In this document: positions 18,301 to 24,300 of the stretch, piece after piece
Position numbering within the stretch: the stretch's first letter is position 1
Layout: the number at the start of each line of letters is the position of its first letter
Origin: Candidatus Woesearchaeota archaeon
Lineage (GTDB): Archaea; Nanobdellota; Nanobdellia; Woesearchaeales; WAPY01
Direction of reading: 5' to 3'
Assembly: GCA_049700835.1 (NCBI GenBank)
Contig: JBNAUL010000002.1
Location: forward strand, 222,999-286,998
DNA length: 64,000 nt
Made by a program: the position numbers

Positions 18301-21300
18301 ATAGTATAGCTAAGTTTTTTGAGCTGATTTATAAAACTTTCTAAAACAATAAAAATTATAAGAATTATATAAAAAGAAATTAAATACTTTATTGACTGAC
18401 AATATTCTATGATTAAGGGAGTTGCATTTGATGCAGGAGGAGTTTTGTTAGTTACAGGAGAAACAAGTTTAAAAACAGAAAATTTATTTAAAAAATATTT
18501 TCCAGAAATAAGGTATGAGCGTTACATGAAAAATTTTAGGAGATTCAAAAATAAAGCTCAGAAAATAAAGGGATATTCCTTTAAAACTGCTGTTGAGGAA
18601 TGCTTAAAATCATTAGGCATCAAGGATAAAAAAAGAATAAGGGCTTTCAGCAATAGAATTATAAGAATAAAACCAAAAATAATAAGAGGTTGCAGGGAAT
18701 TGTTTGAATTCATAAAAAGAAAAAAATTAAAAATAATTATTTTGAGTGACACACATAATACGAGTTCAAGCGCTCGGAAGTTCTTTAAACTCAAGAACAA
18801 AAAAATCTCAGAAATGATTGATTTTATAATAACTTCAAAGGATGTTGGATGCAAGAAGCCCTGCTCTAAAATACTAAGGTATGCTTGCAAAAAGTCAGGG
18901 CTGAAGAGAGAAGAAATTCTCTTCATAAGTGACAGCATGGAAGAGATTTCAGGGGCAAGAATTTTTGGGTTTAAAACGATTTTGTTCTCAAACAAAAACA
19001 TAAGCAATGCTCTTTATCTAAAACCCATAATTGAAAAATATCTTCACTCGTAAATTTTCATTGATGAATAAAAAATAGATGAGAAACAAAAAAACAGACA
19101 AGAAACAGACAAGAAACAAATTTTATAAAATTAAAATCCTAAATTTATTTTTTAAGTTCTCTTTTCACTCCTTTTCAATTTTCATAACCAAACTTATTTC
19201 TAGCAAGTTAAGAGTATTAACAATAATTACTACTAATCTTGTCAATAGTATTATCTCATGCCTTTCAAGATTCTTGTTTTTCAGGAACATTTCATTGTTC
19301 TTTTCAAAGATTTCTCTTCTTAAAGAATATATAGAGTTTATCTTATCGCTGTTGTAAGTGTAAAAAATCTCGTATGCCAATCTGAATGTTTGGTTGATTT
19401 TTGAGAATATTTCAAGGACTTCTCTTCTTACTGGTTTGCTGAAATAAAATAACTCTTTTGTCAGATACCTGTACACATGGATTATTTCTTCCAACTGCGT
19501 AAGGTAATTGTAGAGAAGGGTTGTTTTCTTGTAATCATAGTAGCCATATTTGCTCAACAGCCTCAAGCAATAGTAGATTAACTTCTCTATCGTGTCGTGC
19601 TTATCGTAGAGCTGTATTTGTTTAAGCTCTTTTATCGCATTGTAGCTTTCATTTCCCATCTCTAATATTAGTAAGAATATTCTCCTCATTATGTTATCAA
19701 ACTCCTTTTCATTCGTTGTTGTAATCTCTTTTATTAGGCAGTAATTTTCAGTGCTGCTTATGATTTCAATTCCTATGAGCTTATCTACCTGGGCCCTGAT
19801 TGCGCTGTAAACAGGAACATTGTTCTTTAATTTCAAATCCCTTGTTTCTTTATTCTTGAATTTTAGTTTTATTTCTTCGTATCCTGCTTTGTATGCGCCC
19901 TTGATGCAGACCTCTATCAACTGCTTTGACATATCTGTAACATCAAGTTCTATGGATTCTATGCTGATTGGTTTTTTTGTTGAGATTACGAGGCTATTTG
20001 CTTTCTCCTCGATTTCAAGTTCTTCCCCTTTTGAGATTTTGTATTTTTCAACCCACTTCTTCGGCAGAGAAATGACAGAGGTTTTTCCGGCAAGCTGTAT
20101 AACTTTCCTTTTCATAGAGTGCAGGAAATTATTCTTAATATATAAATTTTTCTAATTATATAATTATATATTAATTTATATTTTTTAAGGATAAATTATA
20201 TATTTATCAGCACATTATTAATGATTGTTTTTCCAAAAAAAATGAAAACAAATCAAATTTAAATGGTGATTTTAATGAAAATAACAAAAAAAGATTTAAT
20301 GATCATAACAGAATTGAGGAGAAACGCAAGAGAAACGCTTACAAGATTGAGCAGAAAAACAAGAATACCAATATCAACGATATTCGACAGGTTAAAGCTA
20401 CAGGAAGGAGAACTCATTAAAAAGCACTGCGCCTTAATAGATTTTCAGAAGATAGGATTTTCAATAAGAGCTAACATCCTTATAAAGGTCCCTGTTGAAC
20501 AAAGAAACAGGTTAGTTGAGCACTTGCAGAAAGAACTCCACATCAATACTGTGCTTAGAATAAACAATGGATACGATTTTTTGGTTGAAGCGCTTTTCAG
20601 GACTTTAAAAGAGGCAGAGGGCTTTGTGAATAAGCTTGAAGAAGAATACAAGATAGAGGATAAAAAGGTCTTTTATGTCATCGATGAGATAAAGAGAGAA
20701 GAATTTTTATCAAGCCCTGTATTTGCTGATATGCTCTTTTAACGATATGCTCTTTTGAAATTCTCATAAAAAACAAAAAAACAAAATAAAAAAGAAATTA
20801 AAATGCTTTTTTAGGACAATCTTTTACCTGGTCAGAGCACTTTTGCAAGTAGAAACATTTTTGTTTCATAAGCTCAGAAATTTCTTTCCCATATCTAGGA
20901 ATTTCAGAAATTTTATTAACGAGTTCTTGCGTTAAATATTGCATCTCCTTCTTTGCAGTGGCACATAATCTTTCTCCAGAAAGCTTAATAAGATTATACC
21001 CATCAAAATTTTCATAAACAAAAACCTTTAACCCATGAGGCAGAACTATGTTTGCAGACATTGGATCTGTGTTATATTCATTTATTAGTTTATTCCAAAA
21101 ATTTAACAACATCTCATAATCCTTTGCAAATATTTCTGCTTTACCCTTTAATGCTTCTGGGTAAGTAAAAAGTTTTGCTGAATCTAAATTTTTATTAACT
21201 GCTATTTTAGCAGCAGCTCTTTTAGCAGCACAAACTAATGGTTCATATTGTTTTGGAACTGTTCTGTGCCTTGTTTCTTGATGCAATAATGACAAATCCA

Positions 21301-24300
21301 CAACTCTCAAAACTTTTACATTTATTGTTTTCAACACATCATACATGTTCTTTTTTAGTTTATTTTCTTTGCTCTTCAAAGTTTCAATTATTTTTTCAGT
21401 TCCATAATTTTCTATAACGTGCAAAGGGTCTGAAATCTCTAGAACAACAGCATTTCTTATAACATTTCTTATAGGAGTTTCTGTATGTGCTCCGTAAGCT
21501 CTAAGCAGTATCTCCTCAAGTTTTTCTGTTGCTCCATTCTCTGGCAAAAATAAACTTCCAGATGGAAAATGTTGAAGTTGATCGTAATTCGTATTCCACT
21601 TTCTTACCAATAATTTGTTTTTTTGTTGCAGAACATCAAAAATTTTGCTTGAGTATTCAAAAATAGCATCTAATCCTCCTCTGTCATTAATTATTTTTTC
21701 TCCTTTTGAATTAGATGTTATTCCTGATTCAAGGAACATCTGCCAAAAAGCTCTCAATGAAATATCTGCTGTTAAGGAAGTCAATAAACTCAATGGCTGA
21801 ATGTACATTGCATCTTCTCTGTATTTTTTCCTTTCCTCTTCATCAAAACATTCTAATAATTTATTATAATCCTCATTAATAACAGCTATTATTGAACTGT
21901 ACTCCTTCATTATCCTTTCATTTTTGGAAAACTCCTTTGGAATGAAATAAGCATTGTGTTCTATTCTCCTTGTGGATTTTTGAAGCAAGGAAACGCCTCT
22001 TTCAAATGTTGTCAGCCACAGAGTAAAAATTCTTGGAGCAATTAAACTGATTCTCTCAGTTATCAAATCTGCTGCTGCATTATGGCCCTTTCCAAGAGAG
22101 TTCTCCAGAATCCTTTCTACATCTTCTTCTCTTAATTCTTCTACATATTGATTGTAAGTCCCTATTCTTGATGTCTGCTTCAGGGCAGCAGAAAGTTCTT
22201 GTAATTTCTTATAACCGTTTTTGTCACTAAAGTTTTCAGTTTCATGAATAGTTATTGGCCTTAAACTTTCATCCTTTTCTCCAAGCTGTTCAAGCTCTTC
22301 AAGAGTAAAAAGATTTTTGTCTTTAAAATAAGGTTCTATTTTTTCTACAAGAGTTCCAGGAAATGTATATATTTTAATCTCAGAATTGTTCTTAGAAGCT
22401 TCAGATTCCATAAGACCACCCAGCTTATAGACACCATAAAAAGATTATCTTTAAATAATTTTTGTTACTTAAAAAGAATTATTTTAAAATTAGCATTTGA
22501 TTATAAATATTGTATTATTGTAAAACAGAATTTTTTTATATTAGTGAAAATTATTTTTTAAAGGGTGATTCAATGGCAAGGCCAAGCTGGGATGAATATT
22601 TTTTAGGAATAGTTGACAGTGTTGCTCAAAGAGCAACATGCGACAGGGGAAAATCTGGGTGCGTTGTTGTCAAGGACAAGAGAATTCTAACAACAGGATA
22701 TGTCGGGGCTCCTTCTGGACTTCCTCATTGCGATGAAGTCGGGCATATGCTCAGAAAGTCAGTAGACGAAAATGGCGAAATAAAATTGCACTGCGTTAGA
22801 ACAGTTCATGCAGAGCAGAATGCTATCTGCCAAGCAGCAAAGTTTGGAATTTCGCTGCAAGGAGCAACTATTTATTGCACAATGGTTCCCTGCTTTACCT
22901 GCGCAAAATTGATTGTTAATGTAGGAATTAAAAGGGTTGTTTGCAAGTTTAGGTATCATGCTGATAAAGACACAGTAGAATTGTTCAAAGAAGCAGGGGT
23001 TGAGCTTGAGGTAGTTAATGAAAAGGTTTTAGAATATGAGAACCAATCTTCAGGAAAGATTTAGTTTGAAAGATTAAAAAACTTTGAAGATTAAAAAACT
23101 AAAAACTGGTGGGGCTGTTGGGATTTGAACCCAAGCCACTAGGTCCCGAACCTAGGATACTACCAAGTTATACTACAGCCCCAAAACAATCGCAAAACAA
23201 TCAAAACGAATTAAAATGAATTCTTGATTTATATAAAAACTTTGTTCTTCAGAACAGAAGAAAAGAAGAGAGAGCAGCAAGAAGCACATGACAATCTCTG
23301 CTATACACATTGCTATGAAAACCATTATTGTTTCCACTAATTAATAACAAAAATAATAAAATTTAAATATGGATTTATAACTACACTTCATAAGATGAAT
23401 GAAGACTATTCCCTTAGAGAAAGTGAGATTGAAGATTTTCTGAAAAGTTTTTGGAACGAAAAGGAAAAATACTTTTTAAGAAAACCTTACATTGTTGAGT
23501 TTGCAGGCCCTCCAAAATCAGGAAAATCAACTTTGATAGATTCCATAAAATACAAATTTAACGATTATGGGATTATACCTGAGGTTTCCATTGATTCTGT
23601 TGTAAAAAAAGAAGATAGTTTAGAGTACATTGTAAATTCACAAGCAAAAACAAGATTGAGATTACTAGAAGCAAAATGCAGGAGGAATGAAGAAATAATT
23701 TTTATTGACTGCGGAGCTTTCAGCGAGTTGGCATTGCTTGATGCGTATAAAAAGGATAAAAAGATAAAGAAGGAACAGGAATGGATTTACAAAAATTTGA
23801 GAAATCAGATACTTTTTGATTTTGTCTATGAGGATATGGTAATCTATGTGTGTATACCTTTGAAAGAAGAAAACAAGAGAATAGAAAACGAGGTTAAAAT
23901 ATTCAGCCATAAAAAAATGTATGAAAGGAGTATAATAAATCCTAAATTCATAGAAAAATTTAACTTAACTTATGAGAATGTTTATAAAAAAGAACTTATA
24001 GTTCAAAGATTAAAAGAAAAAATGAAATTTATAATGATTGAAGGAAGCAGAGCAGTGAATGAAAACATTGAAATAATAATGGAAGAGATAAAAAGCGAAT
24101 TCTACAATAAGGGTTAAAAAGCAAAAGCAAAAAGAAAAAAACATTTAAAGAGGCTAAAAAACTGAAATTAAAAAAATTAAGCATAACCCTGTTTTGACTC
24201 AAGTTCAATCTCAACTTCTTCAAGTCCTGCCTTTTTGGCTTTAAGTTTTGGCAACTTCTTCTTGTAAATCAAATAGATTATGCAAGCAAAAACAAAACTG

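Follow-up and report, generated by a model that had tools for sequence, protein, structure and literature searches.

The window, a stretch of 64,000 nucleotides from the genome of a Candidatus Woesearchaeota archaeon, carries on its minus strand a gene for a two-domain flavin-dependent thymidylate synthase (ThyX). The gene lies at 20798..22411, counted along the window; an earlier remark that these positions count along the contig was wrong, and the contig coordinates are C2:243796-245409. Its reading frame is intact and has no internal stops, and the product, at 537 amino acids, falls within the 413-593 aa range of the two-domain family. Beside it, and divergently transcribed from it, is a dCMP deaminase gene. 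In the features below, invariant columns refer to an alignment of seven sequences (A1): the window's protein and six of its seven word-indexed matches, the seventh being the protein's own database copy.

20798..22411, minus strand: thyX, two-domain flavin-dependent thymidylate synthase; an ATG-to-stop ORF of 537 aa and a stop codon
22268..22411, minus strand: N-terminal extension (residues 1-48), found in the closest relatives and lying ahead of the point where the alignment to canonical ThyX begins
21557..22267, minus strand: N-half ThyX fold (residues 49-285), from hhalign, structure match and conservation table
21965..21982, minus strand: dUMP-binding loop Q144-K-S-T-R-R149 (canonical QQSQRY), translation checked
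21461..21556, minus strand: linker (residues 286-317), with no invariant column in A1
20801..21460, minus strand: C-half ThyX fold (residues 318-537), from hhalign, structure match and conservation table
21263..21271, minus strand: RHR motif (R381-H382-R383), translation checked
20816..20965, minus strand: cysteine tail (C483, C519, C525, C532), a candidate metal site
22412..22572, no strand: AT-rich divergent intergenic region of 161 bp separating thyX from the dCMP deaminase gene, read directly from the sequence
22573..23064, plus strand: dCMP deaminase (ComEB type), PF00383 at 87.3 bits

The chain holds two ThyX-fold repeats, as the genome-wide survey's note had proposed. Pfam family PF02511 (Thy1) matches the protein in two stretches at 72.3 bits (cut-off 24.8); the best stretch pairs residues 73-226 with HMM positions 15-162, and both exceed the cut-off in a six-frame search (39.7 and 32 bits). 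The NCBIfam equivalog TIGR02170 reaches 35.7 bits, below its cut-off of 87.9, and covers residues 373-503 in the C-half only. A single-sequence phmmer search with the 537-aa protein returned no solved ThyX at E<=1. Profile comparison by hhalign aligns canonical ThyX with the N-half (E 1.2e-30) and with the C-half (E 8.6e-47). It also aligns the halves with each other over 121 columns at a probability of 97.4% (E 1e-11), so that the two are homologous and their sequence likeness is stronger than the weak one reported before.

An AlphaFold2 model built with 106 aligned sequences has a pLDDT of 89.4 and a pTM of 0.90, which replaces the middling confidence of the earlier model. Confidence drops to 60-79 at residues 291-320, in the linker region, and to 43-48 at residues 1-20 of the N-terminal extension, where T16-F17-x-G19 is invariant in A1, as is L40 further along. 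The N-half (model range 33-277) matches Mycobacterium tuberculosis ThyX 2af6_G (VIA; Z 14.3, rmsd 2.5, 199 residues aligned) and Thermotoga maritima ThyX (Z 13.5). The C-half (model range 319-537) matches Helicobacter pylori ThyX 3ah5_A (VIA; Z 11.5, rmsd 3.3, 191 residues aligned). The Foldseek matches to ThyX reported previously were reproduced, with 3ah5_A at E 1.6e-6 and a TM on target of 0.59-0.71.

The canonical ThyX active site is assembled from three subunits (PMC6514825, section 3.1). In M. tuberculosis numbering, subunit A contributes the RHR motif, which binds the FAD phosphate and ribityl groups and dUMP, together with Arg199; subunit B contributes Ser71 and Arg190; and subunit C contributes Arg87, Ser105, Arg107 and Tyr108 (PMC6514825). 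These roles were mapped via the single-domain protein P0132 onto the M. tuberculosis and T. maritima chains, and then onto each half by hhalign. The N-half keeps R127, Q144, S146, R148 and R220, the equivalents of R87, Q103, S105, R107 and R190, and has lost the RHR motif (T135-F136-E137) and the Arg199 equivalent (S229). The C-half keeps R381-H382-R383 and R481, the equivalents of R95-H96-R97 and R199. It has lost the dUMP loop, where it carries P391, V393 and C394, and the equivalents of R87 (L373) and R190 (Y472). In canonical relatives QQSQRY lies 8 residues from RHR, and the contiguous pattern RHR-x5-QxSxRY is whole in neither half of the present protein, which reads TFE ... QKSTRR in the N-half and RHR ... 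YEPLVC in the C-half. Nonetheless, the roles of subunits A (RHR, R199), B (R190) and C (R87, S105, R107) are all present once per chain. The single occurrence of RHR, at residues 381-383, agrees with its earlier assignment to the C-terminal repeat alone. The S-T-R-R stretch that had been read as its replacement in the N-terminal repeat was misaligned: profile-profile alignment places T135-F136-E137 at the RHR position, and Q144-K-S-T-R-R149 aligns with the canonical QQSQRY, so that S-T-R-R corresponds to the SxRY of the dUMP loop.

This partition is conserved across the family, as counted in an alignment of 106 two-domain proteins. Both complementary residue sets are kept in 96 of them, the 537-aa protein included, and R[HQN]R occurs in the N-half window of none. 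On the C-half, R381 and R481 are found in all 106 and R383 in 95, and position 382 is His in 64 and Gln in 36. The N-half dUMP loop has S146 in 101 and R148 in 105. Position R127 is Arg in 76 and Lys in 27, and R220 is Arg in 62/106 and Glu in 29/106. At the corresponding lost positions, the C-half carries Leu, Trp or Ile (R87), Trp, Tyr or Phe (R190) and, for R107, Tyr in 72 proteins and Val in the one studied here; the N-half is variable at the RHR and R199 positions. Several other positions depart from the canonical set. This protein and its closest relatives have A112 in place of Ser71 (65 Ser and 33 Ala in the family) and M202 in place of T. maritima R147, which is M. tuberculosis R172 (55 Arg and 21 Met), and the Tyr108 'lid' is replaced by Arg149 (Arg in 70/106).

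The two-domain build is far from rare. A word-indexed search again returned the seven proteins on which the genome-wide survey's note had based its claim of rarity, a number that reflects the limited sensitivity of such a search. Exhaustive HMMER searching gave 948 matches at E<=1e-3; of the 150 best-scoring representatives, 104 are 413-593 aa long. When 201 genomes of the same phylum were sampled, 97 were ThyX-positive, and at least 64 of these carry the tandem form, as do 27 of 72 in a second archaeal phylum. Two-domain ThyX appears to be the main form of thymidylate synthase in Woesearchaeota-type DPANN archaea, and it is also common in a phylum that holds a Nitrososphaeria genome. In a FastTree phylogeny of 34 N-halves, 34 C-halves and single-domain ThyX, which has long branches, 33 N-halves form one clade (support 98). 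Thirty-three C-halves form another (support 99) that is nested among Cys-type single-domain ThyX and also takes in five short 'single' proteins. Both halves of the 537-aa protein (N_P0001 and C_P0001) lie inside these clades, the N-half and C-half subclades mirror each other, and the one N-half and one C-half that fall outside both come from P0126.

We put at roughly 0.75 the probability that the enzyme is a ThyX with the following history and build: a Cys-tail-type ThyX was duplicated in tandem and fused in one ancient event, its two halves then lost catalytic residues reciprocally, and the product works as a dimer with composite sites. Role A would be filled by the C-half only, whereas roles B (through R220) and C would fall to the N-half only; on that division of labour, a homodimer would make up a pseudo-tetramer. 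The placement of the halves, which we deduce from the published subunit roles, would put the two C-halves on the pair of positions that have no active site in common, leaving the other pair to the two N-halves. The most likely outcome is a homodimer with two complete composite sites, so that each dimer would bind two FAD, while the other two pseudo-sites would be dead. The data show the two folds, the homology of the halves, the residue partition with its conservation, the lack of ThyA and the gene context; that the protein is a dimer, how many sites it has, and that it binds FAD and is active we infer from this scheme. The earlier expectation of half the sites is consistent with it: with two of the four pseudo-sites expected to be dead, a dimer of pseudo-dimers is favoured. 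The neighbouring dCMP deaminase would supply dUMP, which the two-domain ThyX would methylate to dTMP.

The genome-wide survey's note had instead regarded the N-half as degenerate, which would make it a catalytically inert scaffold, with activity coming from the C-halves alone, paired across chains. The presence of RHR in the C-half only fits this idea, as does the confinement of the TIGR02170 match to the same half. However, the C-half has no dUMP loop and no equivalents of R107, R87 and R190, and the N-half holds S146 and R148 in 95-99% of the family. The N-half also has as many invariant positions in A1 as the C-half (36 versus 34). Since dUMP-loop residues missing from the C-half are present in the N-half, degeneration is reciprocal, and a substrate loop would not stay so constrained in an inert scaffold, which makes this explanation very unlikely.

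The two-domain enzyme is probably the cell's own route to dTMP. In this genome (1.07 Mb, 98.66% complete), six-frame profile searches found no second Thy1 match, and the best match to ThyA (PF00303) reached 11.9 bits (E 0.056), short of the cut-off of 24.3; the same ThyA search detected the enzyme in 10 of the 14 named genomes that served as controls. The gene is thus the sole thymidylate synthase gene found in the genome, and a dCMP deaminase gene lies beside it, both as had been noted before. The deaminase scores 127.5 bits against TIGR02571, under the cut-off of 219, and its adjacency to thyX is kept in L004, a 50%-identical relative. Genes for thymidylate kinase (Tmk) and ribonucleotide reductase (RNR) are present. 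A thymidine kinase gene is present as well, which makes salvage a second possible source of dTMP. Serine hydroxymethyltransferase (SHMT), FolD, GcvT, FTHFS and DHFR had no match in the genome, which leaves the usual methylene donor without an evident source.

These last two observations, and the reliance of DPANN-type small genomes on their hosts, would suit a relic thyX that does little or nothing in a cell living on thymidine salvage. The intact frame, 75 positions that stay invariant even in relatives as distant as 31% identity, catalytic residues conserved across the family, and the deaminase synteny kept at 50% identity make such a relic most improbable. A ThyX-fold enzyme with another substrate or chemistry deserves somewhat more weight, although we still regard it as unlikely; it could, for instance, be a PolB-like UMP/dUMP methylase, a hydroxymethylase, or a methylase whose donor is not methylene-tetrahydrofolate. 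The model fits Streptomyces PolB (4p5b_C; Z 13.6) no worse than it fits true ThyX, the protein falls under the thyX equivalog cut-off, and the changes at the Tyr lid and at the positions matching Ser71 and T. maritima R147 point the same way. So does the lack of folate C1 enzymes, and T. maritima ThyX is described as able to use formaldehyde directly (PMC8316439). Against this stand the absence of any other thymidylate synthase, a neighbour that makes dUMP, and the conserved dUMP-phosphate and uracil-binding arginines. In addition, four genomes in the phylum sample (G046, G147, G170 and G133) have SHMT as the direct neighbour of the tandem thyX. Nor is a lack of SHMT confined to the tandem form: by hand count it is missing in 48 of 64 tandem carriers and in 12 of 17 single-domain carriers.

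The cysteine tail occurs on the C-half only. All four cysteines of this conserved Cys3-4 tail are present in the 537-aa protein, and in the family C483 is kept in 104/106, C519 in 78, C525 in 104 and C532 in 101. C483 lies two residues after R481 and is followed by C519-x5-C525-x6-C532, with a G-x-C-P-E consensus. The tail could form a redox-active iron-sulfur site that passes electrons to the flavin from a donor other than NAD(P)H, and in genomes without recognisable folate C1 enzymes, this one among them, the enzyme would also draw its methylene from a non-folate source such as formaldehyde; we regard this idea as unlikely. If true, two-domain ThyX would be a mechanistically distinct class of thymidylate synthase, beyond the fusion. 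A structural zinc site is the less interesting alternative. No structure has been solved in the large archaeal ThyX clade that shares the Cys site.

Among known enzymes, canonical single-domain ThyX (FDTS; TM0449 and the M. tuberculosis and H. pylori enzymes; EC 2.1.1.148) shares the fold of both halves (Z 11.5-14.3), the Pfam family and, once both halves are combined, the catalytic set. The pathway context is also the same, with no ThyA and dUMP from dCMP deaminase. In contrast to it, the two-domain protein has two folds per chain, splits RHRxxxxxQxSxRY between them, falls under the TIGR02170 cut-off and is expected to be a dimer with two sites rather than a homotetramer with four. The Cys tail is missing from the T. 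maritima-type class of our sample (L012-L017). It is shared, as R-x-C ... C-x4-5-C-x6-C, with single-domain archaeal enzymes such as P0132 and L006-L011, which are the C-half's nearest single-domain relatives in the tree. These enzymes, unlike the two-domain form, have complete contiguous RHR and QQSQRY motifs and are presumably ordinary homotetramers.

Our literature search found no biochemical study of two-domain ThyX, nor is there a solved structure; the sole mention it returned was a 2009 remark by Valas and Bourne on an uncharacterised duplicated ThyX in Chloroflexi (PMC3224940). That protein, as described there, has the same architecture, and the paper offers no residue analysis. The remark speaks of 'a few other species', whereas the two-domain form is far more widespread in the present data. 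The window's gene is a further member of a known, biochemically uncharacterised kind and ordinary for its lineage, and the result for the gene itself is mostly corrective, since it does not belong to a rarity of seven members. Two-domain ThyX can nonetheless be seen as a natural experiment in which three active-site subunit roles have been sorted onto two linked domains. This makes it a convenient test of which subunit does what, and it suits asking whether ThyX needs all four sites. A bacterial variant, known by its ESM Atlas label, is a 769-aa ThyX-ThyX-thymidylate kinase fusion cluster from Saccharimonadota (whole-protein TM by query 0.65, 420 residues aligned), whose extra Tmk domain ties two-domain ThyX to dTMP metabolism.

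The thyX gene of the window is an intact ATG-to-stop open reading frame, and its 537-aa product (P0001) is matched by Pfam Thy1 in two stretches (72.3 bits in total; best stretch, residues 73-226). Against the NCBIfam thyX equivalog TIGR02170 (cut-off 87.9 bits) the protein reaches only 35.7 bits, in a match confined to residues 373-503. Six-frame searches of the whole genome (G000; 1.07 Mb in 4 contigs, completeness 98.66%) returned no second Thy1 match, and ThyA stayed below cut-off throughout (11.9 bits at best, E 0.056). A dCMP deaminase gene adjoins thyX across an AT-rich spacer of 161 bp. 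The genome-wide survey's note had described a two-domain ThyX acting as sole thymidylate synthase next to a dCMP deaminase; the reading frame, the Pfam matches and the six-frame searches therefore bear out this descriptive core. P0001 is a genuine two-domain ThyX, intact, and its genome has no other thymidylate synthase.

Features of the locus (window coordinates)
20798..22411, minus strand: thyX, ATG to stop, intact, 537 aa (contig C2:243796-245409)
20816-20965, minus strand: cysteine tail of the C-half, residues 483-532
22268-22411: N-terminal extension of P0001, residues 1-48
22573-23064, plus strand (opposite to thyX): dCMP deaminase, PF00383, 87.3 bits
23110-23182, minus strand: tRNA gene, flanked by the genes of dCMP deaminase and the P-loop protein
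23395-24117, plus strand: P-loop protein, 240 aa

Only seven proteins of this build had been counted previously. All seven were recovered by word-indexed search, and the apparent rarity dissolved in an exhaustive HMMER search with a profile of P0001 and six of these matches (alignment A1), which returned 948 proteins at E<=1e-3, of which 182 reach E<=1e-10. Two-domain size (413-593 aa, median 471) was found in 104 of the 150 best representatives. A larger alignment (A2) was assembled from P0001, P0003, P0007 and 103 of the 104 representatives of at least 400 aa, excluding the database's own copy of the window's protein (P0002), for a total of 106 two-domain proteins.

In an AlphaFold2 model of P0001 built with A2 (pLDDT 89.4, pTM 0.90), the strand and helix order of the first half recurs in the second. 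By VIA-align, model residues 33-277 superpose on M. tuberculosis ThyX (2af6_G, Z 14.3, rmsd 2.5, 199 aligned) and residues 37-278 on the T. maritima enzyme (1o26_C, Z 13.5); residues 319-537 superpose on H. pylori ThyX (3ah5_A, Z 11.5, rmsd 3.3, 191 aligned). The Foldseek matches to ThyX reported earlier were obtained again. Profile-profile comparison relates the N-half (residues 49-285) to the C-half (residues 318-537) with a probability of 97.4% (E 1e-11, 121 columns), and relates each to 16 single-domain relatives (N-half, E 1.2e-30; C-half, E 8.6e-47). Among PDB sequences, the A2 profile found 23 distinct ThyX sequences, every one of 216-270 aa, so there is no solved two-domain chain among them. 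The A1 profile gave weak PDB matches to the C-half only, and single-sequence phmmer with P0001 gave no ThyX at E<=1. The N-terminal extension is missing in the shorter two-domain proteins (413-470 aa); T16, F17, G19 and L40 are invariant among the closest relatives, and residues 1-20 are poorly modelled.

The canonical ThyX active site is built from three subunits. In M. tuberculosis numbering, subunit A supplies R95-H96-R97 and R199, subunit B supplies S71 and R190, and subunit C supplies R87, the Q103 backbone, S105, R107 and the Y108 lid (PMC6514825). By way of P0132, an archaeal single-domain ThyX with a complete, contiguous motif, these residues were mapped onto solved chains and onto each half. 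The C-half holds the RHR motif (R381-H382-R383) and the R199 equivalent (R481), while L373, P391, V393, C394 and Y472 occupy the positions of R87, S105, R107, Y108 and R190. The N-half is its complement: R127, Q144, S146, R148 and R220 occupy the positions of R87, Q103, S105, R107 and R190, with T135-F136-E137 at the RHR position and S229 at that of R199. At the lid position P0001 has Arg149. The equivalents of Ser71 and of T. maritima R147 are Ala112 and Met202 in P0001 and its closest relatives; most of the family has Ser and Arg.

Conservation of P0001 residues among the 106 two-domain proteins (A2)
C-half R381: 106/106
C-half H382: 64 H, 36 Q
C-half R383: 95/106
C-half R481: 106/106
N-half R127: 76 R, 27 K
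N-half S146: 101/106
N-half R148: 105/106
N-half R220: 62 R, 29 E
C-half tail C483: 104/106
C-half tail C519: 78/106
C-half tail C525: 104/106
C-half tail C532: 101/106

Both complementary residue sets are kept in 96 of the 106 proteins, and R[HQN]R occurs in the N-half window of none of them. The N-half's 'S-T-R-R' had been taken as its substitute for RHR; these N-half residues align with canonical subunit-C positions, and the segment is therefore the dUMP loop and not a replacement of RHR. The label 'half-degenerate' likewise gives way to a reciprocal sub-functionalisation, in which each half keeps the residues that the other has lost. If anything, the N-half is conserved better than the C-half in A1 (mean identity 0.56 vs 0.49; invariant positions 36 vs 34).

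From the published subunit roles and the pattern of conservation across the family, we infer how the halves would be placed in a pseudo-tetramer. Role A could be filled by the C-half only, and roles C and (via R220) B by the N-half only. In a D2 pseudo-tetramer of two chains, only one arrangement would be consistent with this: both C-halves would sit at positions that share no common site, and the flavin site of each C-half would be completed by both N-halves, each N-half taking role B at one site and role C at the second. Such a dimer would have two live and two dead sites.

The cysteine tail of the C-half has a consensus of about R-x-C ... P-K-C-x3-G-x-C-P-E-x3-C; in the N-half it is reduced to a vestige without cysteines. 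The motif also occurs in the nearest single-domain relatives of two-domain ThyX. Single-domain ThyX of the phylum falls into two classes, one with the motif (L006-L011) and one T. maritima-like and without it (L012-L017). The tail sets the C-halves of two-domain ThyX and one archaeal single-domain class apart from the T. maritima type. Alignments of P0132 to PDB ThyX chains stop before the tail, and an ESM Atlas search with the tail alone returned no named non-ThyX cluster. No mention of a ThyX Cys motif, or of iron-sulfur, 4Fe-4S or zinc in this connection, was found in the literature passages searched, the ThyX passages of PMC9012536 included. A reasonable guess is that the tail is a candidate metal site, possibly Fe-S or Zn, next to the active-site Arg481.

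The origin of the fusion was approached with a FastTree phylogeny of 34 N-halves, 34 C-halves, 22 Cys-type single-domain ThyX and 6 of the T. maritima type, the 34 two-domain proteins being the first 10 of the 106 and then every fourth. In this tree, 33 of the 34 N-halves form one clade (support 98), and 33 of the 34 C-halves form another (support 99) that branches within the Cys-type singles. The make-up of the subclades is the same on both sides. Both halves of one protein, P0126, lie outside their respective clades. This topology, obtained by a fast method and with long branches, fits a single old duplication that gave rise to two-domain ThyX. The C-half clade also takes in five short 'single' ThyX of 228-266 aa (P0092, P0098, P0100, P0102 and P0145), perhaps fragments on short contigs, perhaps truly split two-gene versions of the two-domain enzyme.

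Two-domain ThyX is a widespread, known but biochemically uncharacterised architecture, of which P0001 is a typical member. Cluster names on some HMMER matches are Nanoarchaeia, Nanoarchaeota, Micrarchaeia and Woesearchaeota, and the contig that bears P0036 is titled Nitrososphaeria. ThyX clusters of two-domain size in the ESM Atlas measure 441 and 514 aa, with Nitrososphaerota as the commonest phylum, and 446 aa (Bacillota). The Atlas also holds a 769-aa bacterial cluster (Saccharimonadota) with ThyX domains and a thymidylate kinase, a whole-model structural match (TM by query 0.65). With A1, related-locus searches recovered only two Woesearchaeota loci, and with P0036 only that protein's own Nitrososphaeria contig. 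Chlamydia ThyX, at ~529 aa, is possibly two-domain as well. The size of the C. trachomatis enzyme is not stated in the passages of PMC3498832 consulted. In the literature passages searched, nothing on tandem, fused or duplicated ThyX was found beyond a 2009 remark on an uncharacterised duplicated Chloroflexi ThyX (Valas and Bourne, PMC3224940).

Sampled genomes of the window's own phylum carry a Thy1 match in 97 of 201 cases. By hand count, 64 of these 97 have at least two matches; whenever both places are given, they share one open frame of about 410-630 aa. Another 17 have just one match, strong and full-length, in a frame of 237-355 aa, and the other 16 have one weaker match (frames of 155-620 aa, 7 of them 550-620 aa). 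One genome (G016) has two separate tandem frames of 601 and 573 aa, and another (G171) a tandem frame of 550 aa with a single-domain frame of 251 aa. The ThyA family PF00303 is matched in 111 of the 201 genomes, hence a patchy distribution of thymidylate synthase types within the lineage. Of 101 genomes from the phylum to which the Nitrososphaeria genome belongs, 72 have a Thy1 match and 27 the tandem form (frames of 445-569 aa, hand count).

G000 keeps ThyX, yet shows no evident source of the usual methylene donor. Neither SHMT nor FolD was found in G000; the control searches detected each of them in all 14 named control genomes. GcvT and DHFR were also absent, and FTHFS had no match above cut-off in this 98.66%-complete genome. 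An SHMT match is absent from 74 of the 97 ThyX-positive genomes of the phylum sample. A tie between this absence and the tandem form was rejected, as SHMT is lacking in 48 of 64 tandem and 12 of 17 single-domain carriers (hand count). Direct use of formaldehyde is described for T. maritima ThyX (PMC8316439), and this may be one possible way round the gap. In four sampled genomes (G046, G147, G170 and G133) an SHMT gene directly adjoins the tandem thyX, which fits a folate-dependent thymidylate cycle.

Gene order is kept at a Woesearchaeota locus (L004, 50% identical): P-loop protein, dCMP deaminase, thyX, Lrp/AsnC regulator, and ORFs of 316 and 214 aa whose sizes agree with the AbrB/MazE-domain protein of the window and its 214-aa upstream ORF. 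The window's P-loop protein is weakly similar to AAA_28, to deoxynucleoside kinase (dNK; E 0.0065) and to NDUFA10, a dNK-family complex I subunit (E 0.054), and is possibly a nucleoside or nucleotide kinase of the same dTTP cluster. Its L004 counterpart is a 238-aa ORF at the same position with no Pfam match at E<=1e-4. Five further tRNAs lie elsewhere in the window. G000 also encodes Tmk (73.3 bits), RNR (468 bits) and a thymidine kinase. The thymidine kinase family has two matches (profile 1-115 and 84-176) at G000:C1:105302-106039 on the minus strand, in one 428-aa frame that is long for TK.
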